Positions 2,020 to 29,130 of a stretch of DNA of 32,000 nt are shown here, one piece after another (the first letter of the stretch is position 1; the number at the start of each line of letters is the position of its first letter). Source of the stretch: Tardiphaga sp. (GTDB taxonomy: Bacteria > Pseudomonadota > Alphaproteobacteria > Rhizobiales > Xanthobacteraceae). The stretch spans positions 1-32,000 of the forward strand of contig NZ_JBIIOT010000004.1 in the NCBI RefSeq assembly GCF_044336785.1, in the 5' to 3' direction. Made by a program: the position numbers and the translations under genes. The notes under the pieces are model-generated. The model ran no database searches. It saw nothing but the letters and a program-made list of their open reading frames with translations, and was not told the DNA's origin.

Positions 2020-3129
2020 TCACGCCGGCACCGGCGCCTTATCCTCGATCAGTTTCTCGCGCTTCAACGCGGCCCAGAATTCTGCCGGCACCTTGGCGCG
2101 GATCGAGGCTGCGTTCTGCGCCACCTGCGTGGCCGAGCGGGCGCCGGGGATGATCGCCGACACGGTCGGATTGGCGATGGCGAAATGCAGCGCGGCGGTG
2201 CGCAGATTGGTGCCGTGCTCCTGCGCGAGTGCGGCGATACGCGCGCGCTTGGCGCGCATCTCCGCCGGGATGGCGGCGTAGTTGAAGCGCTCGCCACCGG
2301 CGAGGAAGCCGTCATTGAGCGGCGCGCCCACCACGATCGACGCGTTGTGCTTCGCCACCACCGGGATCAACTGGTTGAGCGCATCCGCATGTTTGACGAG
2401 CGAATATTGCGTGGCCGACAGGATTATATCGGGATCGGCAACTTCAAAGGCCTTCAGTGCCGGCGGCAACGTGTTGACGCCGAGCCCCCAAGCCTTGATC
2501 ACACCGGCATCACGCATCTTTGTCAGCTCGACAAAGGCGCCGGTCCTGGCCTTCTCAAAGTGCTCGGTCCACGTCTCGCCCATGTCCTTGTTGTCCGGCG
2601 ACAGGTCATGCACGAAGACGATGTCGAGCCGGTCCATCCCCATGCGCTGCAGGCTCTGCTCCACCGAGCGCTTCACGCCATCGGCACTGTAGTCATATTC
2701 ATGCCGCATCGGCGGCGTCACCGCCCAGTTGCCGACCTTGCTGCCAGCCACCTTGGCATCGGGCACCAGCACGCGGCCGATCTTGGTGGAGATGATGTAG
2801 TCGTCGCGCGTCTTGCCGTCGAAGAATGTGCCGAAGCGGCGTTCGGACAGGCCGAGGCCATACCAGGGCGACGTGTCGAAATAGCGCACGCCCTCGTCCC
2901 AGGCCGCCTGCATGATCGCCGCCGCCTGATCCGCCGGCGTCGCCACATGATTGCTGCCGACCTGCGTGCCGCCGATGCCGAAGCGGCCGGCCGGGCGATA
3001 GCGCGCGGCTTTCTCATTGACCGGCAACGGCGCTGCCGGCGTCGTCGGCGCAGCCATAGCACCACGGGCGCTCGCAGCGAGAATGGCGGCACCGGTTGCG
3101 GCAGTGAGGAAAGTTCGACGATCGGTCAT
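2020..3129 (-). CDS. aldo/keto reductase with twin-arginine (Tat) signal peptide
   Basis: 369 aa. The N-terminus MTDRRTFLTAATGAAILAASARGAMA-A fits the S/T-R-R-x-F-L Tat consensus, a hydrophobic region and an AxA cleavage site. AKR hallmarks present: FDTSPWYG (Asp/Tyr), STKIG (Lys), VFVHDL (His). Confidence 0.85.
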   Translation of the reverse strand: MTDRRTFLTAATGAAILAASARGAMAAPTTPAAPLPVNEKAARYRPAGRFGIGGTQVGSNHVATPADQAAAIMQAAWDEGVRYFDTSPWYGLGLSERRFGTFFDGKTRDDYIISTKIGRVLVPDAKVAGSKVGNWAVTPPMRHEYDYSADGVKRSVEQSLQRMGMDRLDIVFVHDLSPDNKDMGETWTEHFEKARTGAFVELTKMRDAGVIKAWGLGVNTLPPALKAFEVADPDIILSATQYSLVKHADALNQLIPVVAKHNASIVVGAPLNDGFLAGGERFNYAAIPAEMRAKRARIAALAQEHGTNLRTAALHFAIANPTVSAIIPGARSATQVAQNAASIRAKVPAEFWAALKREKLIEDKAPVPA

Positions 3130-3241
3130 CAGAGGCCCTTCATTTCATTCGGCGGAATGCTGAGTGAATGCGGCCGGCAGAACGACGTTCCGGAATTGAT
3201 GTCGTGGCGAATAGACGCGGACACAGCGACGACCGCGGATT

Positions 3242-3269
3242 TTGCCAAGACTTACAATCTATCTATAGT
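3242..3269 (+). promoter_or_regulatory. putative sigma70-type promoter of the ATPase/HNH cassette (TTGCCA-N16-TATAGT)
   Basis: TTGCCA at 3242-3247, a 16-nt spacer, and TATAGT at 3264-3269, inside a very AT-rich stretch 40-55 nt upstream of the candidate start codons. Motif match only. Confidence 0.3.
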
Positions 3270-3308
3270 TGATTTTGTTACTACAGATCAAGTAGTAGCT
3301 AACAAACA

Positions 3309-4862
3309 TTGGAGTGCTGCTCGTTGAGATTCGTAGTTATTCAGAGGTCGCAGAGTTTCCCTCAAACGGGACAAAGCGAGGTCTATCTGCGAATAGACCA
3401 TTGGAACGACTATTCTTTCGTGACGATGTTTGACGTCACCGCATTTGACGAAAATGGAAATCGTTTCGAGCTTGGCAGCGTGAAGATCGGCTTCGTTGAA
3501 CAAACGATCGAAACAGCAACCTATTCCACGCTCGGCGACAACTTCGAATCTCTCTCAGATAAGCATTTTTCACTGGGGCAAGATGTAAGCTATTATCGTG
3601 CATTAAGCGAAGACGCTTCAACAACCTTCAAAGATGCGATTCTACGCGGACTTAGAGATATTGTGGCCAACCCGGAAAGTTTAGAGAAAGCTTCCGGCCA
3701 GCGTGTCTTCAGCGTATCGCTCCTGCGCTCGGTAAGCCACTCGATGATAGATGGTCAATTCCGCCGAGTGCTAGAAGGCGGAGCCCCCTTAAGCGACTTT
3801 AACTTTGGCTTCGCACGCCCTCAATCTGACAAGATCGCCGGGATCGAGTTAAGCTTTGTTGTCAAAGCCTCATCCAAACCGAGCACTAATATTCATGCTA
3901 TCATCGGCCGCAATGGCGTTGGAAAAACATCACTACTCAACGAGATGATAGCTGCGATCATTCAGCGAGATAAGACTGACGCGAGATTTCGCGCAAACAA
4001 CATTTTTCAAAGTGTTGAGATCGATCAAAACTACTTCAGCAGCTTGATTTCAGTCTCTTTTAGCGCATTCGATCCATTCAATCCTCCAGAAGAGCAGCCA
4101 GACCCAGAGCACGGAACACGTTATTACTACATCGGATTGAAAGACATCGCGGACGATTCAGGAACGTTATTAAAGTCGCTATCCGCGTTGCGCCGTGATT
4201 GCATCGCCAGCCTCGCCGAGTGTTTCTCGGACAAGGGTAGACGCGAGCGCTGGAGCAACGCCATCGCGACCCTAGAATCCGACGAGAACTTCGCTCGTAT
4301 GGACCTTCGGTCTCTGGCTTCCCTTTCTGGCACAGCCATGAAGTCGACAGCAGAGAGCCTAGTTGAGCGCATGAGCTCCGGCCATGCTGTCGTCCTTCTG
4401 ACAGTTTCCCGCTTAGTAGCAAAAGTTGAAGAAAAGACTCTGATTTTGATTGATGAACCAGAGAGTCATCTTCACCCACCGCTATTGTCGGCATTCACAC
4501 GAGCATTAAGCGAACTGTTAAGCAACAGAAATGGCGTGGCGATTATCGCCACGCACTCCCCAGTTGTCCTGCAAGAAGTGCCACGATCGTGCGCTTGGGT
4601 CATTACCAGATCAAGGCTTTCGATGCACGCGGAGCCTCCACGAGTAGAGACATTCGGTGAGAATGTAGGGATGCTTACTCGCGAAGTCTTTGGCCTTGAG
4701 GTTACAAAATCTGGCTTCCACTCCTTGCTGGCCACTTCAGTTAATGATGGAAAATCGTACGATGAAATCGTAGCAGAGTATGCCGGACAGCTTGGGCTCG
4801 AGGCTCGCGGGATACTGCGCGCAATGATTGTCGAGCGTGACGCGAGGCTCGATCAAGCGTGA
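3309..4862 (+). CDS. ABC/SMC-type (AAA15/21-like) ATPase with unassigned ~190-aa N-terminal domain; PtuA-like defence ATPase candidate
   Basis: 517-aa ORF with a TTG start at 3309. An alternative TTG at 3324 lies 9 nt after GGAG at 3311-3314. Motifs: Walker A GRNGVGKTS (aa 200-208, nt 3906-3932), C-loop-like MSSGH (aa 355-359), Walker B LILIDEPESHLHP (aa 378-390), H-loop ATHSP (aa 414-418). AT-rich codon usage is unlike the flanking genes. Confidence 0.85.
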   Translation: MECCSLRFVVIQRSQSFPQTGQSEVYLRIDHWNDYSFVTMFDVTAFDENGNRFELGSVKIGFVEQTIETATYSTLGDNFESLSDKHFSLGQDVSYYRALSEDASTTFKDAILRGLRDIVANPESLEKASGQRVFSVSLLRSVSHSMIDGQFRRVLEGGAPLSDFNFGFARPQSDKIAGIELSFVVKASSKPSTNIHAIIGRNGVGKTSLLNEMIAAIIQRDKTDARFRANNIFQSVEIDQNYFSSLISVSFSAFDPFNPPEEQPDPEHGTRYYYIGLKDIADDSGTLLKSLSALRRDCIASLAECFSDKGRRERWSNAIATLESDENFARMDLRSLASLSGTAMKSTAESLVERMSSGHAVVLLTVSRLVAKVEEKTLILIDEPESHLHPPLLSAFTRALSELLSNRNGVAIIATHSPVVLQEVPRSCAWVITRSRLSMHAEPPRVETFGENVGMLTREVFGLEVTKSGFHSLLATSVNDGKSYDEIVAEYAGQLGLEARGILRAMIVERDARLDQA

Positions 4863-5734
4863 GAAAACTCGACATTCCCGGCGACGACCCGATGGACGTC
4901 TACAACGCTTGCGTTGCGGCCGTCAGCGACCCACAACTCCAACACCTCTACGATTCTAATCAGCCTCATATATTCAGAGCAGTCACTGCGTTCAATGACG
5001 CTACAGCAGCGGTGGCTTGGTCAAATCTCCCACGAGTGCCGCGCGGAAACGATGGACGAGTCATTGCCGGCAACCTAACAAAGAAGCACCTTACTGACCT
5101 TTACTCTAGCTACATGGTTGGCAGCACGGGCTCTTCGAGGAAGATATATGATGACATCCTAGTTTCCTCGGGAGGGCTATGCCCATTCTGTGGCGGTCTG
5201 GGCCAAGTGCACACTCTTGACCATTACCTGCCCAAGTCAAACTTCCCAATTTATTCCGTGCTGCCTACAAATCTCATCCCCTGTTGCCGCGATTGCAACA
5301 CCGGCAAAGGCAATACTTTTGGATCTCAGCTAAACGAGCAGACACTACATCCGTATCTTGACGACGATAAATACTTTGCTGCGCGATGGGTATTTGCTGA
5401 AATCTCGGAGACCACGCCGATCGGCGCAGCATTTGTGTGCTTGCCGCCCGCTCATTGGTCAAACTTAGAAAAACTCCGTGCAAAGCGGCATTTTAAGAGC
5501 TACGATATTGCCTCGCGATTTGGTGTCCAAGCCGGCGCCGAATTGGGGAGACTCATTGACTTACGTAGGAACAGCTTGCGGAAACTTTCCTCGCAGATGT
5601 TCAAGGACTATCTCATCGATAACGCGAACTGTGATGGGTTTGACTTGAACGGCTGGAGCAGAACAATGTACGCCGCTCTGGCCGAGGCGGAGTGGTTTTG
5701 CGAGGCGGACTTTACGGCTCGAAGCGGAGTTTAA
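4859..5734 (+). CDS. HNH endonuclease (zinc-ribbon HNH, PtuB/TIGR02646-like) candidate defence nuclease
   Basis: 291 aa. The GTG start overlaps the upstream stop (GTGA at 4859-4862). HNH core at aa 108-147: CPFCGG...VHTLDHYLPKSNFP...LIPCCRDCNTGKGN, i.e. CxxC ... H-x3-H ... CxxC-N. Confidence 0.85.
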   Translation: MRKLDIPGDDPMDVYNACVAAVSDPQLQHLYDSNQPHIFRAVTAFNDATAAVAWSNLPRVPRGNDGRVIAGNLTKKHLTDLYSSYMVGSTGSSRKIYDDILVSSGGLCPFCGGLGQVHTLDHYLPKSNFPIYSVLPTNLIPCCRDCNTGKGNTFGSQLNEQTLHPYLDDDKYFAARWVFAEISETTPIGAAFVCLPPAHWSNLEKLRAKRHFKSYDIASRFGVQAGAELGRLIDLRRNSLRKLSSQMFKDYLIDNANCDGFDLNGWSRTMYAALAEAEWFCEADFTARSGV

Positions 5735-5915
5735 TCGAGTGCCAAAGTCTGACTAACTGCAACTAAGATGCGCCCGAAAATCGATGAAAGAGCAGGGACA
5801 TCTCGAAATTTAGCTGTCTACCTCGTCGCCATCGCAGCTACTTCGGGATAGAAGGATGCCAACCGAAATCGGCAACACGCATTGATCCCTTTCTTTGGGG
5901 CACCTCAAAACGAGA

Positions 5916-5953
5916 ACGGCGCGGCAGGTACTTACCTGCCGCGCCGTTTCTTT
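5916..5953. terminator. GC-rich hairpin, likely bidirectional rho-independent terminator (HNH operon / acnB)
   Basis: acggcgcggcaggta (5916-5930) pairs with tacctgccgcgccgt (5933-5947). It is followed by ttctttacc on the plus strand and tctcgttttga on the minus strand. It lies 21 nt beyond the acnB stop. Confidence 0.6.
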
Positions 5954-5973: not shown

Positions 5974-8766
5974 TCAGTAGTGAACCGACGCCCCCATCGC
6001 ACCGGACTTCGGCGGTGCGAACTTGGTGAGGTCGATGCCTTCCACCGCAGCCTTGTATTCTTCCGCGCTGGGCGTGCGGCCGAGGATGGCGGCCAGCACC
6101 ACGACCGGGGTCGAGGCGAGCAGCGACTCGCCCTTCTTCTCGGCGGTGTCTTCCACCACGCGGCCCTGGAACAGGCGGGTCGAGGTGGCGAGGACGGTGT
6201 CGCCCTTCTCGGCCTTTTCCTGGTTGCCCATGCACAGGTTGCAGCCGGGACGCTCGAGATACAGGATGTTCTCGTAGGACGTACGGTTCGCCGTCTTCGG
6301 CTTCACGTCGTCGAATTCGAAGCCCGAATACTTCTGCAGGATTTCCCAGTCACCTTCGGCCTTCAGCTCGTCGATGATGTTGTAGGTGGGCGCCGCCACG
6401 ACCAGCGGCGCGTTGAACGCCACCTTGCCTTCGGTCTTCTCGATATTCTTCAGCATCTGGGCGACGATCTTCATGTCGCCCTTGTGCACCATGCACGAGC
6501 CGACGAAGCCGAGATCGACCTTCTTGGTGCCGCCGTAATAGGAGATCGGGCGGATCGTGTCGTGCGTATAGCGACGCGACACGTCGGCATTGTTGACGTC
6601 GGGATCGGCGATCATCGGCTCGTCGATGATGTCGAGATCGACGACGACTTCGGCGAAATACTTCGCATTCGCATCCGGCGTCAGCGCGGGCTTTTCGCCC
6701 GAGCGGATTTCGGCGATGCGCGCATCGGCCTTGGCGATCAGGCCCTTCAGCGTGCCCGCGGCATTCTCCATGCCTTTGTCGATCATGATCTGGATGCGCG
6801 ACTTGGCGATCTCCAGCGACTCGATCAGCGTCGCGTCCTGCGAGATGCAGATCGACGCCTTGGCCTTCATCTCGGCCGTCCAGTCGGTGAAGGTGAAGGC
6901 CTGGTCGGCCAGCAGCGTGCCGATATGGACTTCGATGATGCGGCCCTGGAAGACGTTGTCGCCGCACTGCTGCAGCATCTGCGCCTGGGTCGCATGCACG
7001 ACGTCGCGGAAGTCCATATAGGGCTTCATCGCGCCCTTGAAGGTGACCTTGACGGATTGCGGGATCGGCATGGTGGCTTCGCCCGTCGCCAGCGCGAGCG
7101 CCACGGTGCCGCTATCGGCACCGAAGGCGACGCCCTTCGACATGCGGGTGTGGCTGTCGCCGCCGATGATGATCGCCCAGTCATCCACGGTGATGTCGTT
7201 CAGCACCTTGTGGATGACGTCCGTCATCGCATGATAGACGCCCTTCGGGTCGCGCGCGGTGATGACGCCGAAATTGTTCATGAAGCCCATGAGCTTCGGG
7301 ATGTTCACCTGGGCCTTCTTGTCCCACACCGAGGCGGTGTGACAGCCCGACTGATAGGCGCCGTCCACGAGCGGCGAGATGACGGTGGCCGCCATCGCTT
7401 CCAGTTCCTGCGCGGTCATCAGGCCGGTGGTGTCCTGCGAGCCGACGATGTTCACCTTCACGCGCACGTCGGAGCCGGCATGCAGCACCTTGCCCGGCGT
7501 GACGCCGACAGCATTGCGGTTGAAGATCTTCTCCACCGCGGTCAGGCCCTGGCCCTCGACAGTGATTTCCTTGTTCGGCGCGAACACCGGGGTGGCTTCG
7601 ACGCCGAGCGTTTCGGCGGCAAAGGTCTGCAGCTTCTTGCCGAACACGATGGCGTAGGACGAGCCCGCCTTCATGAACTCCATCTTCTGCGGCGTGAAGG
7701 CAGCGGCCACGTCCACCAGCTCCTTGCCGGTCTCGTCGCGCAGCTTCTTGGCCTTGGCGTCGAGCTTCAGCACGGTGCCGGTCTCGACCGAATATTTCTG
7801 CTCGAGGATCGGGTTGCCCTCGTTGTTGAGCACGGGCTTGCCGTCCTCACCGAGCTTCTTGACCCAGTTCTTCAGGTTGACGCCGATGCCGCCGGTGACG
7901 TCCACGGTGGTCGCGAAGATCGGCGAGATGCCGTTGGTGCCGGCGACGACCGGGGCGAAGTTCACGAAAGGCACATAGGGGCTGGCCTGCTTGCCGGTCC
8001 ACAGCGCCACGTTGTTGACGCCGGACATGCGCGACGAGCCGACGCCCATGGTGCCCTTCTCGGCAATCATCATCACGCGCTTGTCCGGATGCGCTTTCTG
8101 CAGCGCGACGATCTCCTGCTGCGCTTCCGGCGTGATCATGCACTGGCCGTGCAGCTCACGATCCGAACGCGAATGCGCCTGGTTGCCGGGCGACAAGAGG
8201 TCGGTCGAGATATCGCCTTCGGCGGCGATATAGGTGACGACCTTGATCTCGTCTTCGACATCCGGAAGCTTGGTGAAGAACTCGGCCTTGGCGTAGCTTT
8301 CCAGCACATCCTTGGCGACGGCATTGCCGGCCTTGTAGGCGTCGCGCAGGCGGAACATGTCGGCGTCGTACAGGAAGACCTGGGTCTTCAGGACTTCACC
8401 CGCCTGCTTGGCCAGCGCGGCGTCCTTGCCGAGCGTCACATCGAGCAGCACGCCGATCGAGGGTCCGCCCTTCATGTGCGACAGCAATTCCAGCGCGAAG
8501 GTCGGGGTGATCTCGGGGACGATCGCCTCGCCGAGAATGATCTGCTTGAGGAAGGCAGCCTTGGCGCCTGCGGCGCTCGTGGTGCCCGGCAGGGTGTTGT
8601 AGATGAAGAATTTCAGGGCGCCGGCGCGGAATTCGCTGCCTGAGTCCTTGATGAGGGCGATGATCTCGCTGGTGAGCGCGCCATCGTCGATCGGCTTGGG
8701 AGCGAGGTTCTGAGCTTTCCGGCTTTCGATCTCGGCGAGGTAATCTGAATACAGGCTCATCGTCAT
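5974..8766 (-). CDS. acnB: aconitate hydratase B family (bifunctional aconitase 2 / 2-methylisocitrate dehydratase type)
   Basis: Collinear with E. coli AcnB as recalled: N-terminal ...YLAEIESRKAQNLAPKPID, VGSQDTTGLMT, GGDSHTR, FVGSCMVH, PGCNLCMGNQ. Start taken at MTMSLY (8766) or MSLY (8760) rather than the ORF-track start at 8808. Confidence 0.9.
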   Translation of the reverse strand: MTMSLYSDYLAEIESRKAQNLAPKPIDDGALTSEIIALIKDSGSEFRAGALKFFIYNTLPGTTSAAGAKAAFLKQIILGEAIVPEITPTFALELLSHMKGGPSIGVLLDVTLGKDAALAKQAGEVLKTQVFLYDADMFRLRDAYKAGNAVAKDVLESYAKAEFFTKLPDVEDEIKVVTYIAAEGDISTDLLSPGNQAHSRSDRELHGQCMITPEAQQEIVALQKAHPDKRVMMIAEKGTMGVGSSRMSGVNNVALWTGKQASPYVPFVNFAPVVAGTNGISPIFATTVDVTGGIGVNLKNWVKKLGEDGKPVLNNEGNPILEQKYSVETGTVLKLDAKAKKLRDETGKELVDVAAAFTPQKMEFMKAGSSYAIVFGKKLQTFAAETLGVEATPVFAPNKEITVEGQGLTAVEKIFNRNAVGVTPGKVLHAGSDVRVKVNIVGSQDTTGLMTAQELEAMAATVISPLVDGAYQSGCHTASVWDKKAQVNIPKLMGFMNNFGVITARDPKGVYHAMTDVIHKVLNDITVDDWAIIIGGDSHTRMSKGVAFGADSGTVALALATGEATMPIPQSVKVTFKGAMKPYMDFRDVVHATQAQMLQQCGDNVFQGRIIEVHIGTLLADQAFTFTDWTAEMKAKASICISQDATLIESLEIAKSRIQIMIDKGMENAAGTLKGLIAKADARIAEIRSGEKPALTPDANAKYFAEVVVDLDIIDEPMIADPDVNNADVSRRYTHDTIRPISYYGGTKKVDLGFVGSCMVHKGDMKIVAQMLKNIEKTEGKVAFNAPLVVAAPTYNIIDELKAEGDWEILQKYSGFEFDDVKPKTANRTSYENILYLERPGCNLCMGNQEKAEKGDTVLATSTRLFQGRVVEDTAEKKGESLLASTPVVVLAAILGRTPSAEEYKAAVEGIDLTKFAPPKSGAMGASVHY

Positions 8767-9058: not shown

Positions 9059-9342
<284 letters not shown>

Positions 9343-9343
<1 letters not shown>

Positions 9344-9768
9344 TGCTCTATCTGGACACGTCGCTCGTCGTCGCGGCGCTTTCCAACGAAGCCATGACCT
9401 CACGCGTCCAGCACTGGCTTGCCGAACAGGACCCCGCGCAGCTTCTGATCAGCGACTGGACCATCACCGAGATGTCTTCGGCTTTTGCCTTGAAGCTGCG
9501 CAGCTCGCAGATCAATCCGGAGCAACGTGCGGCGGCACTGGCGATGTTCAACAGGCTCGTGGTTGATAGTTTGACGGTGTTACCCGTGACGGGCTCACAC
9601 TTCCGGACGGCAGCACGGTTTGTTGATCAACACACACTGGGGCTTCGCGCGGGCGATGCGCTGCATCTTGCAGTCGCCGCGGAGCATGGCGCCAAGGTGC
9701 AGACGCTGGATCAGCGATTAGCTGCGGCCGGACCGGTGCTGGGTGTGCCGACACAGTTAATCACGTGA
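9343..9768 (+). CDS. vapC: PIN-domain toxin, VapC family
   Basis: 141 aa. [10 protein letters not shown]... (Asp5), ITEMSS (Glu), GDALHLAVA and TLDQRL acidic residues in PIN order. The start overlaps the antitoxin stop (TGATG). Confidence 0.85.
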
Positions 9769-9888: not shown

Positions 9889-10143
9889 ATGCCGGCCGTC
9901 ACGATCAGGAACCTGTCCGACGCCACGCACCGCGCGCTGAAAGCGCGGGCCGAGCAGCATGGCCGCAGCACAGAGGCCGAAATTCGCCACATCCTTGAGA
10001 CTGTGGTCCGTCCGGATGAACGCCTCCGGCTTGGCAGCGCAATTGCGGACATCAGCCGTCGTCAGGGACTGACCGACGCGGAAGCCGAAGCGCTCAGTCG
10101 GACCCGCGACCGAACGCCAGCCAAACCGATGAGCTTCGAGTGA
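9889..10143 (+). CDS. ribbon-helix-helix (FitA/StbC/Arc-like) antitoxin
   Basis: MPAVTIRNLSDATHRALKARAEQHGRSTEAEIRHILE is a canonical RHH antitoxin N-terminus. 84 aa. Confidence 0.8.
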   Translation: MPAVTIRNLSDATHRALKARAEQHGRSTEAEIRHILETVVRPDERLRLGSAIADISRRQGLTDAEAEALSRTRDRTPAKPMSFE

Positions 10144-10562
10144 TCCTTCTCGACACGAACGTCGTGTCCGAGGTGATGAAGCTATCACCCGACAAGACCG
10201 TGCGGGCGTGGCTTGATGAACAGATAGCTGAAACGTTTTTTCTGTCGAGCATCACCGCCGCCGAATTGATGTTCGGAATTGGCGTCCTTCCCAATGGCAA
10301 GCGAAAGAACGAACTGACGGCCATTCTGGATGGAATCATCAAGCTGTTCGAAAATCGCATTCTGCCATTCGACACCGCAGCCGCACGACACTACGCCGAG
10401 CTCACTGTCAAAGCTCGCGCGGTCGGCAAAGGTTTTCCGACACCCGATGGCTATATCGCATCGATCGCTGCGTCGCACGGCTTTGCCGTCGCCACGCGTG
10501 ATCCTAGTGCGTTCAATGCGGCTGGGCTGAGGGTCATCGATCCGTGGAAGACGGAGCGTTGA
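10140..10562 (+). CDS. vapC: PIN-domain toxin, VapC/FitB family
   Basis: 140 aa. MILLDTNVVSEVMK (Asp5), ITAAELMFG (Glu), DGYIASIA and ATRD acidic residues. The GTG start overlaps the antitoxin stop (GTGA). Confidence 0.85.
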   Translation: MILLDTNVVSEVMKLSPDKTVRAWLDEQIAETFFLSSITAAELMFGIGVLPNGKRKNELTAILDGIIKLFENRILPFDTAAARHYAELTVKARAVGKGFPTPDGYIASIAASHGFAVATRDPSAFNAAGLRVIDPWKTER

Positions 10563-10585
10563 CGCCCCGCTTCACACACATCAAA

Positions 10586-12193
10586 TCACTCCCACTCGAT
10601 CGTCCCCGGCGGCTTCGAGGTGATGTCGTACACCACGCGGTTCACGCCCTTCACCTCGTTGATGATGCGTGTCGCCGTCTCGCCCAGGAACTTCATGTCG
10701 AACGCATAGAAGTCCGCGGTCATGCCGTCCGTTGACGTCACCGCACGCAGGCCGACGACGTATTCATAGGTGCGGCCGTCGCCCATCACGCCGACGGTCT
10801 TCACCGGGAGCAGCACGGCGAAGGCCTGCCAGATGGTGTCGTACAAACCAGCCTTGCGGATCTGGTCGATATAGACGGCGTCGGCCTCGCGCAGGATGTC
10901 GAGCTTCTCAAGGGTGATCTCGCCGGGGCAGCGGATGGCGAGGCCGGGGCCCGGGAACGGGTGGCGGCCGACAAAAATATCGGGCAGACCGAGTTCGCGG
11001 CCGAGATCGCGCACTTCGTCCTTGAACAGTTCGCGCAGCGGCTCGACCAGCTTCATGTTCATGCGCGCGGGAAGACCGCCAACATTGTGATGCGACTTGA
11101 TGGTCACCGACGGGCCGCCGGTGAAGGAGACGCTCTCGATCACGTCGGGATACAGCGTGCCTTGTGCCAGGAAATCGGCGCCGCCGATCTTCTTGGCCTC
11201 GGCATCGAACACGTCGATGAACAGACGGCCGATGGTCTTGCGCTTCACTTCGGGATCGGTGACGCCTTCGAGTTCGCCGAGAAACTGTTTTGACGCATCC
11301 ACATGGACCAGCGGGATATTGTAGTGGCCGCGGAACAGATCGACGACGGTCTTGCCCTCGTCCTTGCGCAGCATGCCGTGATCGACGAACACGCAAGTGA
11401 GCTGATCGCCGATCGCTTCATGGATCAGCACGGCAGCGACTGCGCTATCCACGCCGCCGGAGAGGCCGCAGATCACTTTGCCCTTGCCGACCTGGGCGCG
11501 GATCTTCTCGACCGCTTCCTCGCGGAAGGCGCGCATGGTCCAGTCGCCGGTGAACCCGGCAACTTTTCGCACGAAATTGCGGATGATCTTTGCGCCGTCC
11601 GGCGTATGCGCGACTTCCGGATGGAATTGCATCGCATAGAATTTGCGGACGTCGTCGGCGATCACCGAGATCGGCGAGCCCGGCGCCTTGGCCACGCCGC
11701 GAAAACCGTCCGGCAGTTTGGTGACGCGGTCGCCATGGCTCATCCAGACGTCGTATTTGCCGCCCTTCTCCCACACGCCTTCGAACAGCGGGCAGTCGTC
11801 GGTGATCTCGATGGTGGCGCGGCCGAATTCGCGGTGATGGCCGCCCTCGACGGTGCCGCCGAGCTGCTGTGCCATGGTCTGCTCGCCATAGCAGATGCCG
11901 AGCACCGGCACGCCGGCGGTGAGGATCGACAGCGGCACCGAGGGTGCATCCTTGTCGAGCACCGAGGCCGGGCCACCGGACAGGATCACGGCTTTCGGCT
12001 TCATCTCGGCAAAGGCGGCTTCCGCCTTGTTGAACGGGACGATCTCGGAATAAACGCCGTCCTCGCGCACCCGGCGCGCGATCAGCTGCGTCACCTGGGA
12101 GCCGAAATCGACGATCAGAATCTTGTCATGCTCGGCACCCACATGGGCGGAGTGGGCCGAGGACGGAAGGGCGGATGTGCTGGGGGCTGTCAT
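10586..12193 (-). CDS. guaA: glutamine-hydrolysing GMP synthase
   Basis: 535 aa. GATase-1 domain ([32 protein letters not shown]), ATP-PPase SGGVDS motif, and the C-terminal ...KPPGTIEWE typical of GuaA. Confidence 0.95.
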
Positions 12194-12377: not shown

Positions 12378-13862
12378 CTAGTGCCTGGCCGCGCCCAAAG
12401 CGGCGCCTGCTTTGTCATGCGTACCCAGTCTGTCCACCAGGGTGCGGGTCGCCTCGTTCATGCCGATGAGCTCGACCGGGATACCGTGGTGGCGGAACTT
12501 GAGGACCACCCGGTCCAGCGCATTGACGCTGGTGAGGTCCCAGAAATGCGCCGCCGACAGGTCGATCACCACGCCCTTGAGGTCCTCCTCGCGGAAATCG
12601 AAGGCGGTGTGGAAGGCCTCGGATGTGGCAAAGAAGATCTGGCCGGTGACGGTATAGGTCCGAACCGCCGTCTCCTCCGCGCGACCGGACGAGACGCCGA
12701 ACAGCTTTGTCACCTTGTGCGCAAAGAACAGCCCACTGAGGATCACGCCAAACAGCACGCCCTTGGCGAGATCATGGGTGGCCACCACGACCACGACAGT
12801 CCCCAGCATGACCACGCTGGATGATTTCGGATGGGTCAGCAGCGTGCGGACCGACTTCCACTGGAACGTGTTGATCGACACCATGATCATGACAGCGACC
12901 AGCGCCGCCATCGGGATCTGCGCCACATAGGGCCCGAGCACGACGATCAGGAACAGCAGGAAGGCCCCGGCCCAGAATGTCGAAAGCCGTCCGCGCCCGC
13001 CGGAGGAGACATTGATCACCGACTGGCCGATCATCGCGCAGCCAGCCATGCCGCCGAAGAAGCCCGAAGCGATATTGGCCGCGCCCTGCCCGGCGCATTC
13101 GCGGTTCTTGTTGGATGTCGTGTCGGTCATCTCGTCGATGATGGCCGCGGTCATCAGGCTTTCCAGCAGGCCGACCATGGCGATGGCGAAGGAGGTCGGG
13201 AAGATGATGCGCAGTGTCTCCCACGTGAACGGCACCTGCGGCAGCGCGAAGAACGGCAGCTCGCTCGGCAGCGCGCCCATGTCGCCGACGGTGCGGATGC
13301 CGAAGCCGAAATACATGGACGCCGCGGTGAGCAGCACGATGGTGACCAGCGGCGATGGCACGGCTTTGGTGATATAAGGCAGACCATAGATGATCACGAG
13401 GCCGATGGCGGTCATTGCGTAGACCGTGGTGCCGCGGCCAAGAAGCTCGGGCATCTGCGCCATGAAGATCAGGATCGCCAGCGCATTGACGAAGCCGGTC
13501 ACCACCGAGCGCGACACGAACCGCATCAGGGTGCCGAGCCGCATCAGGCTGGCGATGATCTGGATCACGCCGGTCAGGATGGTCGCGGCAAACAGGTAGT
13601 TGATGCCGTGCTCCTTGACGAGACCGACCATCAGCAGCGCCGTGGCGCCGGTCGCCGCCGAGATCATCGCCGGCCGGCCGCCGGCAAAGGCGGACACGAC
13701 GGCGATACAGAACGAGGCATAGAGGCCGAGCCTGGGATCGACGCCGGCGATGATCGAGAACGCGATGGCTTCGGGAATAAGTGCGAGGGCCACGACGGTG
13801 CCCGCGAGCAATTCACGGGTGACATTCGGAGCCCATTCGCTCCGCAAATGAACCATATCCAT
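12378..13862 (-). CDS. SulP-family inorganic anion transporter with C-terminal STAS domain
   Basis: About 495-503 aa and polytopic ([12 protein letters not shown], multiple TM segments). The C-terminal STAS-like region is ...[15 protein letters not shown]...[17 protein letters not shown]. Start uncertain: 13889, 13862 or 13856. Confidence 0.85.
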
Positions 13863-14067
13863 GGTGATGTTTGAACTTTCTTGTCTCACACGCGAGAGCG
13901 TATGAGGCGCGCAAAAGGGCGAACGGCCGCGATGCGGTCCGTATATGGCAGCCAGGATTTTGCGTTGTCCGGCGGGTCGGCGGCCGGAAGAGCCACCCGG
14001 ATTTGCACCGGGTCCGGTGGATTGGGTGGAGAGTAACGGAGACGGTGATGCGGCGCAATGCAGTCGC

Positions 14068-24136: not shown

Positions 24137-26518
24137 ATGGACGTCCCCATGCAGGATTTTACCGGCTCCCGCGACAATTCCATCGCCATGCAGAAATACG
24201 GGGTCGGTCAGCCCGTCCGGCGCAAGGAGGACGACACGCTGGTGCGCGGCCAGGGCCGCTATACCGACGATCTTCATTTGCCTGGCCAGCTCTATGCCTG
24301 GGTGGTCCGCAGCCCGCATGCCCATGGCGTGATCCGCAAGATCGACACCGAGGCCGCCAAGGCGATGCCCGGCGTGCGCGGCATCTGGACCGGCGCCGAT
24401 ATTGCTGCGGCCGACTACAAGCCCTTCACCGTCGGCCTCCCGATGAAAAGCCGCGATGGCTCGCCGCTGCTGCAGACCAATCGCCAGGCGCTGATGACCG
24501 ATCGCGTCCGCTATGTCGGCGATCCCATCGCCTTCGTCGTCGCGGAGACACTCGCGCAGGCGCGCGATGCCGGCGAAGCCGTCGAGCTCGACATCGAGCC
24601 ACTGCCCGCCGTGACCTCTGCCGAGGACGCGACCAAGCCGGGCGCACCGCAGCTCTATGAGCACATCCCGAACAATGTCGCGCTCGATTATCACTATGGC
24701 GACACCGACGCGATCGATGCGGCCTTCGCCTCGGCTGCGCATGTGACGAAACTCGACATCGAGAACACCCGCGTGGCCGTCGTCTCGATGGAGCCACGCT
24801 GTGCGCTGGCATCGTTCGACAGGGAGACCGAGCGCTACATCCTGCAGGTGCCGACCCAGGGCGTCGCCGGCAATCGCGCCACGCTGGCGCGCCACATGAA
24901 TGTGCCCGCCGAGAAGATGCGCATCCTCACCGGCAATGTCGGCGGCTCCTTCGGCATGAAGAATGTGAGCTACCCCGAATATATCTGCCTGCTGCATGCG
25001 GCAAAGGCGCTGGGCAAGCCGGTGAAATGGCTGGATGAACGCTCATCCAGTTTCCTCTCCGACAGCCAGGGCCGCGCGCAACAGATTCATGCGGAGCTGG
25101 CACTCGACAAGGACGGCAAGTTTCTCGCCGCACGCCTGTCCGGCTACGGCAATCTCGGCGCCTATATCACCGGCGTGTCGCCATTGCCGCTATCGATCAA
25201 TGTCGGCAAGAACCTGCCGAGCGTCTATCGCACGCCCCTGGTCGGGGTCGACATCAAATGCGTGGTCACCAACACGACCCTGATGGGCGCCTATCGCGGC
25301 GCCGGACGGCCCGAAGCGAACTATTTCATGGAGCGCCTGATCGACCGCGCGGCGGACGAGATGGGCATCGACCGGCTCACGCTGCGCAAGCGCAATTTCA
25401 TCAAGCCATCGCAACTGCCTTTTGCGGCGGCGTCGGGCGTCACCTATGACAGCGGCGATTTCCAGGGCGTGTTCGACAAGGCGCTGGCGATTTCCGATCA
25501 TGCCGGCTTTGCCAAACGCAAGCGCGAGGCGAAGAAGCAAGGCAAGCTGCGCGGCATCGCCGTCGGCTCCTATCTCGAAGTCACCGCACCGCCCTCGCCC
25601 GAACTCGGCAAGGTCACGTTCGACCCGGACGGCACCGTGACCATCACCACGGGCACACTGGATTACGGCCAGGGCCATGCGACGCCGTTTGCGCAGGTGC
25701 TGTCGGAGCGGCTCGGCGTGCCCTTCGATGCGATCCGGCTGCAGCAGAATGACAGCGATCTCGTGCGCACGGGCAATGGCACCGGCGGCTCGCGTTCGAT
25801 CACCGCATCGGGCCAGGCGATCGTCGAGGCGTCGGATCTCGTCATCGCCAAGGGCAAGGTTGCTGCCGCACATCTGATGGAAGCGTCCGAGGCCGATATG
25901 GAATTCGAGGATGGCCGCTTCACCATTGCCGGCACCGATCGCTCCATCGACATCATGGAGCTGGCGCAGCGGATGCGCGACGGCAAGCTGCCCGAAGGCG
26001 CCCCGGAGACGCTCGATGTGGATCACGCCAGCGAGGGCCCGCCATCGACCTTCCCCAATGGCTGCCATGTGGCGGAAGTGGAGATCGATCCGGACACCGG
26101 CGTGCTGACCATCGTGCGCTACAGCGCGGTGAATGATTTCGGCACCATCGTCAACCCGATGATCGTTGCCGGCCAATTGCATGGCGGCGTCGCGCAGGGC
26201 ATCGGCCAGGCGCTGATGGAGAAGGTCAGCTACGACAGTTCGGGCCAGCCGATCACCGGCTCCTTCATGGACTATGCGCTGCCACGCGCCGGCGACATTC
26301 CGCTGATGGCCATCGGCGATCATCCGTCGCCCGCCAAGACCAATCCGCTCGGCACCAAGGGCTGTGGCGAAGCCGGATGCGCCGGAAGTCTCGCGACCGT
26401 CGTCAACGCGGTGGTCGATGCGTTGAGTGCGTATGGCGTGACGCATCTCGACATGCCGCTGACATCGGAACGCATCTGGCGTGCGATCCAGGATGGAAAG
26501 ACAGCCGAGGTGGCGTAA
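24137..26518 (+). CDS. xanthine dehydrogenase-family molybdopterin-binding large subunit (CoxL-like, AYRGAGR type)
   Basis: 793 aa. N-terminus [22 protein letters not shown], the motif [20 protein letters not shown], and C-terminal GTKGCGEAG. Start is 24137 or 24149; neither has a clear RBS. Confidence 0.85.
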
Positions 26519-26527
26519 GGCGCTTTC

Positions 26528-26700
26528 TTTTCCCTCCCCAGAGCGCAGCGACTGGGGAGGGTGGATCGATGCGAGCGTTCAGCGAGCATCAAGACGGGTG
26601 GGGTCTATCCCCACGCTCGGTTCGTCGTGGGGATAGACCCCACCCGGCGCTACGCGCCACCCTCCCCGCTGCGCCGCTCCGCGGCTTGAGGGAGGGAAAC
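26528..26700. repeat. cluster of REP-like hairpins downstream of the CoxL-like gene
   Basis: ccctcccca (26532-26540) pairs with tggggaggg (26553-26561). A perfect 20-bp stem forms between gggtggggtctatccccacg (26596-26615) and cgtggggatagaccccaccc (26626-26645). A further ccctcc...gggaggg arm lies at 26660-26697. Confidence 0.8.
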
Positions 26701-26803
26701 CATACGCTCCTGCGCGCTACTTCCGGATCAACCTGTCAAACAGCCACGCTCTCGCAATCTCGCGGCGCTTGCGCGTCCGAGGTGTGAGCCGTTCTCCCCC
26801 CGA

Positions 26804-27155
26804 AACATGAGGGGAGGTGGCACGCCGCAAGGCGCGTTTGAGTGGACTTGACGCTGCCCGTGCAAGCTGGATCGCCAGCAAGCCCGAGCCGCGCAACGCC
26901 TTACGGCGCGCCACCGCGACGTCTTGCTGGTCGAAGGACCGTTCTTCCGGGTACTGGGCACTTCCCATAAGGAAGCCATCCGACGGATTTCTCCGCCTTC
27001 GCCCGCACCACGTCCAGCCGCGTTAGCGGCAGGGCCCCGTAGTGGGCCCGGACGGTGACCCCCGACCACCCGAGTGCAGGAGGTACGTCCTCCCCTGCCC
27101 GCAGGCGCCGCATCTTGTCCCACTCAAAGACGCCTCATGAGAGCGCCCCTCGTGA
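26804..27155. other. ~350-bp non-coding element bounded by imperfect ~40-nt terminal inverted repeats (MITE-like or structured RNA)
   Basis: The left end aacatgaggggaggtggcacgccgcaaggcgcgtttgagtgg (26804-26845) aligns with the reverse complement of the right end ccactcaaagacgcctcatgagagcgcccctcgtgaac (27120-27157). The core aggcgNNtttgagtgg matches 14 of 16. An internal 8-bp stem CCAGCAAG/CTTGCTGG is present. There is no credible ORF. Confidence 0.3.
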
Positions 27156-27227
27156 ACAAGACAAACGGGATAATGGTGAGGATGGGAATTTTGTCAAGAA
27201 CAAAGAAAGAACACGCATTCGCAACTC

Positions 27228-27312
27228 TAGGGCGGATCAGCGGAGTGTGATCCGCCGGCCGAGCTGATGTGAGGAAGAACGGCGGATGACGGCTACGCCT
27301 TATCCGCCCTAC
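27228..27312. repeat. REP-like palindrome, same family as 18002-18083
   Basis: tagggcggatcagcggagtgtgatccgcc ... ggcggatgacggctacgccttatccgccctac, with outer arms tagggcggat and atccgcccta. Confidence 0.8.
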
Positions 27313-27321
27313 GGCTCCTCG

Positions 27322-27360
27322 CAAAAAAGCCGGCCGGCGGTTCGTCCGCACGGCCGGCTT
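27322..27360 (-). terminator. rho-independent terminator of the 27380-27884 small-gene pair
   Basis: Minus strand reads aagccggccg-tgcggacgaaccgc-cggccggctt followed by ttttttgc. It begins 20 nt after the stop at 27380. Confidence 0.7.
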
Positions 27361-27379
27361 TCAAAACTCAACGCAACGC

Positions 27380-27622
27380 TTACAGGCCGGTATAGCCCGC
27401 CTTGACCGGATCATTGCTGCCGTCGCGCTCGCGCAGATAGGTCAGGCCGCAGACCGTGAGACGCTGCATGTCGGTCTCGCCGCCATCGAACAGCGACTGC
27501 ACATATTCAGTGACCTTGACGCGCGCGTCTTCGCTCGCGGCTTCAGCGCGATTGGCCATTAGATTGTAGGTCTGCATGATACGGTCGATGGCAATTTGCA
27601 TGTCGTCTTTCCCCTTAGACAT
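27380..27622 (-). CDS. small hypothetical protein (73-80 aa)
   Basis: ORF MSKGKDDMQIAIDRIMQTYNLMANRAEAASEDARVKV... with host-like codon bias and a strong terminator. The internal ATG at 27601 is preceded by AAGGGGA at 6-nt spacing and may be the true start. Confidence 0.55.
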   Translation of the reverse strand: MSKGKDDMQIAIDRIMQTYNLMANRAEAASEDARVKVTEYVQSLFDGGETDMQRLTVCGLTYLRERDGSNDPVKAGYTGL

Positions 27623-27662
27623 GGTTTTAGTCAGACTTGGTTTCGCTAGACATCGGACGCGC

Positions 27663-27884
27663 CTAGTGCGGCGCGGCCTGGAATTGGGCTATCGCCCGAT
27701 TGGCAAGGCGGAGCTTGTTGCCCTCGCCGCGATGAAACGCCTGCACGATGATTTCGAGCAGCCGGTCATTGGTGACATACGTGTCCGGGATGGCGCCGGA
27801 GCGCCGCAGGAAATTGGCCGCGATCGCATAGGCATCGCCCACGGCCTCGACATTCATCACTTTCAGACCGCGTTCGACCAGCAT
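27663..27884 (-). CDS. small hypothetical protein (73 aa)
   Basis: MLVERGLKVMNVEAVGDAYAIAANFLRRSGAIPDTYV... GGAGA lies 7 nt upstream of the ATG at 27884. It ends 40 nt upstream of the next small gene. Confidence 0.55.
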   Translation of the reverse strand: MLVERGLKVMNVEAVGDAYAIAANFLRRSGAIPDTYVTNDRLLEIIVQAFHRGEGNKLRLANRAIAQFQAAPH

Positions 27885-28024
27885 GGCTCGATCTCCGATG
27901 ATGTGGAGATAAGTTGACTGGTGGAACTTGGTTCCATGACGGGGAATCTATTTCGGAAATGGGGCGGGAGGGAGTCATTGCGAGGTGAGCAATGAGGCGC
28001 CGCGAGCTTTCTTATCAAGATTTC

Positions 28025-28270
28025 TCAATCTGACTTAGCCAACCATAGAAACAGCGCAGCAAGTGCAAGCCCTGGAAGTCCGAACCAGACTGCGACGACA
28101 GTCACAACGTCAATGGTGAGGGGGCTTCTTGACTCCCAAAGAAACAGCCCAATGAGAAGCCAGGGGCCGAGACAGAAAAACGCTGCCAATAGATATCCAC
28201 GCTGGTTCATCGGCATTCCGATCGCTGCCTCAACGTAGTGAACTCGCGTTATTTCAGTGCCGTAGATCAA
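28025..28270 (-). CDS. hypothetical small membrane protein
   Basis: 81-aa ORF with two clear hydrophobic segments (YLLAAFFCLGPWLLIGLFLW; VVTVVAVWFGLPGLALAALFLWL). Lower GC than its surroundings, start uncertain, no good RBS. Confidence 0.35.
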   Translation of the reverse strand: MIYGTEITRVHYVEAAIGMPMNQRGYLLAAFFCLGPWLLIGLFLWESRSPLTIDVVTVVAVWFGLPGLALAALFLWLAKSD

Positions 28271-28304
28271 AACATGCTTGCATTGTTATGCGGCAAACTC
28301 CGCC

Positions 28305-28351
28305 GATGGGTTTCGCTTCGGCGCTGCGCGCCTGCGCTCTACCCATCCTAC
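28305..28351. repeat. half copy of the gtaggatgggttgagcg REP family
   Basis: gatgggtttcgcttcggcgctgcgcgcctgcgctctacccatcctac matches the right half of the 14068-14169 element. The preceding tgcggcaaactccgcc matches 31973-31988. I saw no left arm. Confidence 0.7.
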
Positions 28352-28364
28352 AGTTCACGCATCT

Positions 28365-28399
28365 CCAAAAACAAAAAGGCGCCCTGAGAAGGCGCCTTT
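28365..28399 (-). terminator. rho-independent terminator downstream of the Flp pilin gene
   Basis: Minus strand reads aaaggcgcc-ttctcag-ggcgccttt followed by ttgtttttgg. Confidence 0.7.
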
Positions 28400-28493
28400 C
28401 ATGTTCAGTGCAGCCTCATGGCTACTCCAAAAAATTGACCCACGCGACGGCTCCATATGGCAGAGCCTTCGCATCCCCAGCCACGGGCAGATC

Positions 28494-28658
28494 TTACTTC
28501 AGCGACGTGTTGAGCGTCGTGAACTTGGTGTTGAGCGTGCTGCCGAGACCATTCACGGCGGCAATGATCGCAAGTGCGATGCCGGCGGCGATCAGACCGT
28601 ATTCGATGGCGGTGGCGCCACGTTCGTCCTTCAGAAAACGTCCAAATGAAACCAACAA
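28494..28658 (-). CDS. flp: Flp/Fap-family type IVb pilin
   Basis: C-terminal part of ORF 28494..29042: (L)LVSFGRFLKDERGATAIEYGLIAAGIALAIIAAVNGLGSTLNTKFTTLNTSLK. It has the G/ATAIEYGLI Flp processing motif and a hydrophobic helix. No in-frame ATG is available. TTG at 28658 or 28655 is preceded by GGGAGAG, giving about 54 aa. Confidence 0.75.
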   Translation of the reverse strand: MLVSFGRFLKDERGATAIEYGLIAAGIALAIIAAVNGLGSTLNTKFTTLNTSLK

Positions 28659-29130
28659 AGTGCTCTCCCAGGTGCTGAAAATGAAACCGGAACCGCCGGT
28701 TCCATTTTGAGGAACCTGCCCAAAAGCCCTTAAAATTTTACCAATTGCGTTCGCTTTTGGCCAAGAAAATCGGAATCGCGCGCCGTAGACGCAAATATCG
28801 GACGAAAACGGCATATGGACCGCCATCAGCCTCCGAACAGAATGCCCAGCAGGTAAGGAAGGCTCACGGTGACGAGGAGCAGCGCGATGATGCCGAGCAC
28901 CATGCCATCCCCCTCTTCCGCGCGTCCGGGTGGCTTCGGGCCGATCCATCTGAGAATGTCGCGCCACACATCGGCACCCGATCACCTTGCTGCTCTGCGC
29001 GCGCGACGAAGGAATTCGTTTTGCGTCGCGGCGTCTTTGCAAAAGATAATTGCTGCAGACTGGTTAAGTTCAGGAACGTCGCCATCAATGCGGGATTGTC
29101 GCAGCGATCCGCAACCGATGGAGATAACCG

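Follow-up and report, generated by a model that had tools for sequence, protein, structure and literature searches.

Sequence and structure comparisons were applied to a 32,000-nucleotide stretch of Tardiphaga sp. DNA (NCBI RefSeq assembly GCF_044336785.1, contig NZ_JBIIOT010000004.1, positions 1 to 32,000 of the forward strand; hereafter the window), in which two open reading frames (ORFs), ORF1 (3309-4862, plus strand) and ORF2 (4859-5734, plus strand), form a co-directional cassette of an ABC-type ATPase and an HNH nuclease. This cassette is almost certainly a member of the phage lambda Ea59/Ea31 family, which is the same family as the PADLOC candidate PDC-M01. It had been predicted to be a Septu-like and possibly undescribed anti-phage system, but full-length similarity links both proteins to the PDC-M01A and PDC-M01B models and, as homologues, to lambda Ea59 and Ea31, whose genes were named decades ago. 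The cassette is not a new system; it is an intact, recently acquired copy of a catalogued and widespread family. Taken as a whole, the locus is probably best described as a horizontally acquired Ea59/Ea31-PDC-M01 pair that acts in defence by a Septu-like mechanism. The features of the two genes, with the evidence for each in brackets, are as follows.

3324 to 4862, plus strand: ORF1, Ea59-like/PDC-M01A ABC-type ATPase of 512 amino acids (PADLOC, Pfam, lambda Ea59, AlphaFold2 (AF2) model).
4859 to 5734, plus strand: ORF2, Ea31-like/PDC-M01B HNH nuclease of 291 amino acids (PADLOC, lambda Ea31, Pfam, AF2 model).
4859 to 4862, plus strand: GTGA, in which the ORF2 start codon overlaps the ORF1 stop codon (sequence).
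3311 to 3314, plus strand: GGAG, candidate ribosome-binding site 9 nucleotides before TTG 3324 (sequence).
3324 to 3797, plus strand: ORF1 N-terminal domain, residues 1-158, family-specific and without annotation (conservation, AF2 model).
3906 to 3932, plus strand: Walker A/P-loop GRNGVGKTS, with K201 in the 512-residue numbering (sequence).
4371 to 4385, plus strand: ABC signature-like motif MSSGH (sequence).
4440 to 4457, plus strand: Walker B LILIDE, with D377 and E378 (sequence).
4548 to 4562, plus strand: H-loop ATHSP (sequence).
5180 to 5299, plus strand: HNH core with zinc ribbon, C108-x2-C111 ... D121-H122 ... N138 ... C143-x2-C146-N147 (conservation).

By comparing the two proteins with the PADLOC models, the family assignment was made at both genes. 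ORF1 matches PDC-M01A (PDLC04235) with an expectation value (E) of 4.6e-210, residues 7-512 being aligned with profile positions 2-507 of 510, and ORF2 matches PDC-M01B (PDLC04256) with E 1.6e-97, residues 1-283 being aligned with profile positions 1-283 of 285. A match to the A model, a match to the B model and adjacent co-directional genes, the features by which PDC-M01 is recognised, are all found at this locus. Similarly, a translated search of phage genomes with ORF2 led to lambda ea31, with ea59 alongside. In BLASTP comparisons, ORF1 is 50% identical to Ea59 (residues 1-506, E 6e-178), the N-terminal domain included, and ORF2 is 34% identical to Ea31 (residues 1-280, E 5e-59). The lambda genes ea59 (25396-26973) and ea31 (24509-25399) are located in the b region of NC_001416, and the order of ATPase followed by HNH gene, as well as the stop/start overlap of 4 nucleotides, is common to the lambda genes and the window pair; in the lambda locus as extracted (L083), the last position of ea59 is 4004 and the first of ea31 is 4001. 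In addition, Ea59 and Ea31 match the same PADLOC models as ORF1 and ORF2, namely PDLC04235/PDLC00282 and PDLC04256.

Several records under other names returned the lambda match itself. Three PLSDB "plasmids" of 48,499-48,502 bp (NZ_CP104294.1, NZ_CP068597.1 and NZ_CP082339.1, hits H1-H3), labelled Stenotrophomonas, Paenibacillus and Salmonella, give lambda's own ea31 match (34.5% identity, E 5e-48) and have the length of the lambda genome, and the 48,361-bp "Campylobacter phage CJLB-4" (MW057783.1, H24) behaves like them. All four look like lambda DNA, present as a control or contaminant.

The ORF finder extends ORF1 to a TTG codon at 3309, and the protein had accordingly been given as 517 amino acids with its Walker A lysine at K206. 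The real start is most likely TTG 3324, because an identical public protein (P0121, the gene call of the assembly) has 512 amino acids, residue 2 of lambda Ea59 aligns at this start, as does position 2 of the PADLOC profile, and the GGAG lies 9 nucleotides upstream. Both earlier figures are therefore replaced, the protein having 512 residues and the lysine becoming K201.

The ordered ABC/SMC ATPase motifs that had been described in ORF1 are all present, and most of their residues do not vary among homologues, the invariant positions being G198, G200, K201 and T202; S351, G353 and H354; D377 and E378; and A409-P413. The Pfam models AAA_21 (58.0 bits) and AAA_15 (46.4 bits) both score over cut-off, as had been proposed as a check, and the ABC ATPase fold is supported structurally as well. 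In ORF2, all motifs quoted for a zinc-ribbon HNH core are found, and among 22 homologues with 40-65% identity the residues C108, C111, D121, H122, N138, C143, C146, N147 and H164 are invariant. H118, which had been counted in this core, is variable among the homologues, and the conserved catalytic pair is therefore predicted to be D121-H122 and not H118/H122. The Pfam HNH model is borderline on ORF2, its 21.2 bits falling just short of the 21.4 cut-off. Neither reading frame is interrupted, and no catalytic residue has been lost.

The predicted structures, both modelled with confidence, place the two proteins closest to the Septu proteins PtuA and PtuB. The AF2 model of ORF1 has a predicted local distance difference test score (pLDDT) of 86, and its top 38 PDB matches are PtuA chains (E. 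coli Septu, retrons Eco7/Ec78, and Ec83); the AF2 model of ORF2 has a pLDDT of 93, and its top PDB matches are PtuB chains, followed by the phage GVE2 HNH protein, the Cas9 HNH domain and Cap5. For the top three PtuB chains the Foldseek probability is 1.0, and the best PtuB match has E 3.9e-4 and template modelling (TM) scores of 0.36/0.47. An HNH fold is thus supported for ORF2, with PtuB as the nearest solved structure. Sequence searches of the PDB gave marginal matches to the same proteins (PtuA for ORF1, E 4e-4; PtuB for ORF2, E 0.065). Against the viral models of BFVD, the Foldseek search returned only generic ABC ATPases. Two other identities were considered and rejected. For an ABC transporter ATPase, the model scores are far under cut-offs, a permease gene is absent, and the partner is a nuclease. 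The OLD, Gabija and PARIS systems were set aside since neither ORF1 nor ORF2 contains a Toprim domain and the partner is an HNH protein; the matches of ORF1 to AriA, MAD3 and OLD-type models (E 1e-13 to 1e-17) cover only 70-110 residues of its C-terminal half, from Walker B to the H-loop.

The description "Septu-like" consequently needs to be divided: it holds at the level of fold and architecture, where PtuA and PtuB are the nearest structures, and it does not extend to family membership at the sequence level. If the cassette were a canonical Septu system (PtuA/PtuB), knowledge of Septu would be directly applicable to it, and this is suggested by a full-length match of ORF1 to the PtuA1 model PDLC00282 (E 1.9e-193), by the structural matches above and by a survey of Bacillus cereus in which some PDC-M01 calls coincide with Septu calls on the same proteins (PMC11811056), so that the boundary between PDC-M01 and Septu is blurred in current tools. 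The nuclease argues otherwise. PDC-M01B models take all of the best 25 places among the PADLOC matches of ORF2, also when the 78-residue HNH core alone is searched, and any PtuB model must therefore be worse than about E 1e-12. The NCBIfam models of PtuB (NF041761, 14.1 bits with a cut-off set at 150) and PtuA (43.6 bits against 500) fall far short on ORF2 and ORF1, and TIGR02646, which had been suggested together with PtuB as a check on ORF2, is not listed for it at E 0.1 or better. The ATPase of a Septu system, with intact motifs and AAA_15/AAA_21 matches, is present, but its HNH partner does not belong to the PtuB/TIGR02646 family. The architecture of ORF1 is not that of canonical PtuA either. 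In canonical PtuA the ATPase head lies at the very start of the protein, with the P-loop lysine at K43 in Septu Ec-B88 (PMC13096335), whereas in ORF1 this lysine is residue 201, behind an extra N-terminal domain of 155 residues, and the canonical PtuA1 model PDLC00283 aligns only from ORF1 residue 189, at profile position 21. Moreover, ORF2 is 291 residues long against approximately 205-234 in the matched PtuB chains, and the solved PtuA and PtuB structures share no more than 12-16% identity with the window proteins. Membership in canonical Septu is therefore quite unlikely, and assignment to the Ea59/Ea31-PDC-M01 family is preferred.

The N-terminal domain of ORF1 (about 155 residues) consists, in the AF2 model, of a beta-meander followed by a helical bundle, and its invariant residues include D25, W27, D29, F32, T34, F36, D42, G56 and Q60. 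It has no Pfam match at E up to 10, and when its profile was run against PDB sequences, all matches were at chance level, such as GrpE at E 0.054. On the other side, its profile recovers 2259 clusters at 50% identity from a library of 1.84 billion representatives; in all of the 150 best listed matches the domain is located at the N-terminus, and the complete proteins have about 500-560 residues. The same domain is present in lambda Ea59. The late P-loop, about 200 residues into the protein, had been regarded as atypical. The late position is real, but it is the norm in the Ea59/PDC-M01A family, the domain being found in every homologue examined.

The pairing of the two genes is conserved strictly and more than chance would allow. 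In a scan with one genome per species, relatives of ORF2 were found in at least 528 genomes, among the Alpha-, Beta- and Gammaproteobacteria, Desulfobacterota, Cyanobacteria, Bacteroidota, Verrucomicrobiota, Campylobacterota and Deferribacterota, and 80 loci from different species were kept. The ATPase gene lies directly upstream of the HNH gene on the same strand, with a tight junction, in 79 of these 80 loci. Among 74 junctions, a 4-nucleotide overlap occurs 38 times and a 1-nucleotide overlap 10 times; 57 fall between a 4-nucleotide overlap and a 2-nucleotide gap, and nearly all others fall between a 13-nucleotide overlap and a 13-nucleotide gap, with one larger apparent overlap. The GTGA overlap at 4859-4862, from which a translationally coupled cassette had been proposed, is confirmed and belongs to the commonest class. 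The only locus lacking an upstream ATPase homologue is that of a Pseudohongiella metagenome-assembled genome (L010, match 10001-10825), which may be an orphan or decaying copy, its HNH match beginning at residue 13. Pseudomonas sp. PLMAX (NZ_CP064949.1) carries two divergent cassettes in one genome (L046 and L053), whose ATPases are 50% and 58% identical to ORF1.

A conserved third gene is absent from the 79 related loci, the largest neighbour clusters being present in 10 loci at most, and no reverse-transcriptase cluster recurs among them. As had been stated, neither a reverse transcriptase nor a retron RNA adjoins the cassette: an Rfam scan of the whole window found no msr/msd RNA, its sole match being a sul1 motif 8 kb away, and no further ORF of the island has a homologue-supported call. 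The possibility of a retron effector pair (type I-A, Ec78/Eco7) was rejected, since the island contains no reverse transcriptase or non-coding RNA.

The neighbours that do recur are integrases (10 of 79 loci, within 5 kb), HsdM (10), HsdR (9, with a median gap of 17 nucleotides), HsdS (6), a WYL regulator (4) and type ISP restriction-modification enzymes (3). At the type ISP loci (L021, 3535-8463, and two more), the cassette starts about 4 nucleotides after a 1642-residue type ISP enzyme, and the nine loci with a type I HsdR gene include L038 (10892-14137). These may be joint operons of the cassette with restriction-modification genes. PDC-M01 itself is one of 145 computational phage defence candidates (Payne et al., bioRxiv 10.1101/2024.01.29.577857), nominated because it is found inside loci of BREX, DISARM or type I restriction-modification systems, and the embedding in restriction-modification loci was recovered here independently of that nomination. 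As the cassette directly adjoins type I or type ISP genes in about 10% of the loci, it could be argued that the pair is an accessory ATPase-nuclease of a restriction-modification system and needs a partner methyltransferase or specificity subunit; a weak match to TIGR04435, "restriction system-associated AAA family ATPase", points the same way. However, this match reaches 54.7 bits where the cut-off is 300, restriction-modification genes are not adjacent in about 90% of the loci, the window and phage lambda included, and no such gene was found within about 10 kb of the cassette or noticed in the remaining window. An obligate partnership of this kind is extremely unlikely.

The surroundings of the cassette in the window comprise three further features.

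3230 to 5900, no strand: low-GC island of 2.7 kb with about 50% GC, containing the two-gene cassette only (composition profile).
3242 to 3269, plus strand: sigma-70-like promoter candidate TTGCCA-N16-TATAGT (consensus scan, 10 of 12 positions match).
5915 to 5948, no strand: GC-rich hairpin with a perfect 16-bp stem, located between ORF2 and the convergent acnB (hairpin/terminator calls).

The cassette is of foreign origin and was acquired horizontally into the chromosome. In the composition profile the GC fraction is 0.504 for 3230-5900, compared with 0.62 for the whole window and 62-66% in the flanks, and the GC content at third codon positions (GC3) is 0.53 in ORF1 and 0.58 in ORF2 against 0.80-0.89 in the flanking genes, in agreement with the foreign composition that had been claimed. 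The island is bordered by an aldo-keto reductase gene (2020-3129, minus strand) on one side and by acnB (5974-8760, minus strand) on the other. Neither a tRNA nor an integrase lies around the island; direct repeats of 8 nucleotides or more are absent from its flanks, and inverted repeats are at chance level only. The promoter-like site predicted upstream is present as a sequence; it is the top consensus match in the region and lies about 55 nucleotides upstream of TTG 3324, and its call is a consensus match only. The strong hairpin reported downstream is likewise real, but it is more likely the terminator of acnB, possibly a bidirectional one, than a terminator specific to the cassette, because it lies 26 nucleotides after the stop codon of the convergent acnB and is called as a minus-strand terminator (tail CTCGTTTTGA); viewed on the plus strand, it lies 180 nucleotides past the ORF2 stop codon and its T tail is weak.

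The foreign composition would also fit a phage-derived accessory nuclease, that is, a stranded moron of the lambda b-region type that serves a mobile element with little or no benefit to the host, and whose native roles might be attack on co-infecting phages or on host or plasmid DNA, or the countering of host systems. The named prototypes are indeed phage genes, adjoining int and xis in lambda; integrases lie within 5 kb in 10 of the 79 loci; and an unannotated 33-kb "Bacteriophage sp." from human faeces (MT835554.1, hit H16) contains, at 26896-27759, an ORF2 relative of 39% identity, which is closer than lambda and indicates that the Ea59/Ea31 family also occurs in non-lambdoid gut phages. 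Yet relatives of the Ea31 type, known from at least 528 species genomes across many phyla, turned up in no more than 19 of 50,697 phage records, and these 19 are mostly Escherichia or lambda-type phages. The window contains no other phage gene, the island being limited to the two genes, the reading frames and catalytic residues are intact, and several related loci are embedded in restriction-modification operons. Furthermore, where inter-phage competition is exerted by a resident element it already amounts to defence, so that this explanation overlaps with the defence reading. A moron without a defensive role is, on this evidence, unlikely.

Based on the above, the cassette most likely encodes an ATP-regulated nuclease complex for defence against phages or mobile elements. 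By analogy with the PtuAB proteins of Septu and retrons, from which complex formation, nuclease activity, regulation, substrate, trigger and defence role are all proposed here, oligomers of the ATPase would bind the HNH subunit by way of C-terminal helical bundles, and nuclease activity would be gated by nucleotide binding or hydrolysis. A cue derived from a phage or mobile element, possibly sensed by the N-terminal domain of ORF1 or through its nucleotide state, would release or activate the nuclease, which might then cut DNA, or possibly tRNA, and thereby block phage replication or arrest the infected cell. PtuAB nicks supercoiled DNA, and PtuB's C-terminal domain is docked onto C-terminal extensions of the PtuA dimer (PMC12819146); the nicking by Septu is reportedly inhibited by ATP, whereas retron Ec78 PtuAB is insensitive to it (PMC12819146). 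In Septu Ec-B88, both the Walker and the HNH motifs are required and phage is limited by growth arrest, and tRNA-Tyr is depleted in vivo by Ec-B88 as well as by retron Eco7 (PMC13096335). A defence role combined with a Septu-like mechanism is, in our estimation, reasonably probable.

Several observations weigh against this interpretation. Since the PtuA and PtuB models score so far under their cut-offs, transferring the mechanism from Septu is an extrapolation, and with the 12-16% identity noted above and TM-scores of 0.3-0.5 the likeness to the solved proteins is remote. The lambda pair belongs to the b region, and the phage grows without it (PMC10695390, PMC9674246); in the papers found to name ea59 together with ea31, the genes are described as dispensable or serve as an insertion site. 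It is therefore just as possible that the pair benefits the phage. In the papers searched, no experimental anti-phage test of PDC-M01 or of lambda ea59/ea31 was found. Next to the cassette the window offers neither an integrase nor a recognised defence system, restriction-modification included; only two VapBC-type pairs are present, 3-5 kb away. Finally, exact-protein look-ups of the flanking aldo-keto reductase and AcnB recovered no related genome with an empty insertion site, and returned only the same assembly or fragments carrying the same ATPase gene.

The tight two-gene operon and its conserved coupling might also be explained by a selfish addiction module resembling a toxin-antitoxin system, in which the HNH protein is the toxin, the ATPase restrains it, the island is stabilised and phage defence is incidental. 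In keeping with this, the name of Pfam AAA_21 comes from the AbiEii type IV toxin-antitoxin toxin, retron PtuAB in its wild-type form is toxic when freed from its retron (PMC12819146), and two VapBC pairs lie nearby. There is, however, no sign that the ORF1 or ORF2 protein is labile, and lambda tolerates the loss of both genes, so that strong addiction is unlikely there. Toxin-antitoxin behaviour and abortive-infection defence can, in any case, coexist. A purely selfish module is highly unlikely, and a defensive ATPase-nuclease remains favoured.

It is also possible, although we put it forward only tentatively, that the Ea59/Ea31 modules constitute a mechanistically distinct branch of ATPase-HNH immunity, in which the N-terminal domain would be the sensor, for example of single-stranded DNA or replication intermediates, and that lambda may use the module against other phages or plasmids. 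An endonuclease specified by lambda (Benchimol, Lucko and Becker, 1982) was reportedly attributed to the Ea31 and Ea59 polypeptides and reportedly needed ATP. In a later paper (PMC5241400), the lambda-specified endonuclease of Benchimol et al. 1982 is cited as dependent on single-stranded DNA, and because of this old description the idea of single-stranded-DNA sensing fits; the citation also counts as a precedent for the mechanism proposed above. The label "ATP-dependent endonuclease" occurs elsewhere (PMC10695390). If the idea were true, a function would be found for two orphan lambda genes known for about 50 years, and there would be a model system, already open to biochemistry, for a widespread family of bacterial defence. 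The useful result is the link itself, namely that the PDC-M01 candidate, the Septu fold and the functionally orphan lambda genes ea59/ea31 represent the same kind of module; neither a statement nor a functional test of this link was found in the papers searched. The function of the family and what its N-terminal domain senses thereby become a question that can be addressed in the best-studied phage-host pair.

Elsewhere in the window, the toxin-antitoxin modules mentioned in the original prediction are present as two tandem VapBC-type pairs on the plus strand, at 9065-9768 and 9889-10562, between acnB and guaA, at the distance from the cassette given above. The pairs consist of a Phd/YefM antitoxin with a PIN protein and a FitA-like ribbon-helix-helix protein with a PIN protein, and their GC3 (0.65-0.73) is somewhat under that of core genes. 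The sul1 RNA motif (RF03058) at 13963-14018, minus strand, is full length with 75 bits against a gathering score of 36, and it lies just upstream of a SulP/STAS sulfate-transporter gene (12378-13889, minus strand). A second low-GC patch at about 27400-29000 (0.53-0.57) contains only small ORFs; the ORF at 28494-29042, minus strand, ends in ...ATAIEYGLIAAGIALAIIAAV... and looks like a Flp-family pilin.

In comparison with known systems, the window locus shows no structural difference from PDC-M01, of which it is a member, PDC-M01 being itself a computational candidate. With the lambda Ea59/Ea31 pair it has all ATPase and HNH motifs in common. Ea59 differs in a longer helical insert, with 525 residues in total against the 512 of ORF1, and the lambda pair resides next to int and xis in a phage genome, whereas in the window the pair forms a 2.7-kb island by itself in a bacterial chromosome rich in GC and has its own promoter-like site. 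Septu and retron PtuAB are likewise two-gene pairs of an ABC-type ATPase and an HNH nuclease, and they resemble the window pair in the Walker A, Walker B, signature and H-loop motifs, in the HNH core with its C-x2-C pairs, and in the C-terminal helices in which both ORF1 and ORF2 end, residues 464-511 of the former and 202-282 of the latter, as at the PtuA-PtuB interface. The differences lie in the conserved N-terminal domain that precedes the ATPase head of ORF1, in the helical insert of ORF1 between Walker A and the signature motif, which in the AF2 model is short (about 65 residues) and much shorter than the long insert of PtuA, and in the length of ORF2, which exceeds the PtuB chains by about 60-90 residues and has an N-terminal helical region of its own. 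The resemblance to Gabija GajA, OLD, PARIS AriA/AriB and MADS MAD3 is confined to the C-terminal half of the ATPase, and the partner here is an HNH protein instead of a Toprim or DUF4435 protein.

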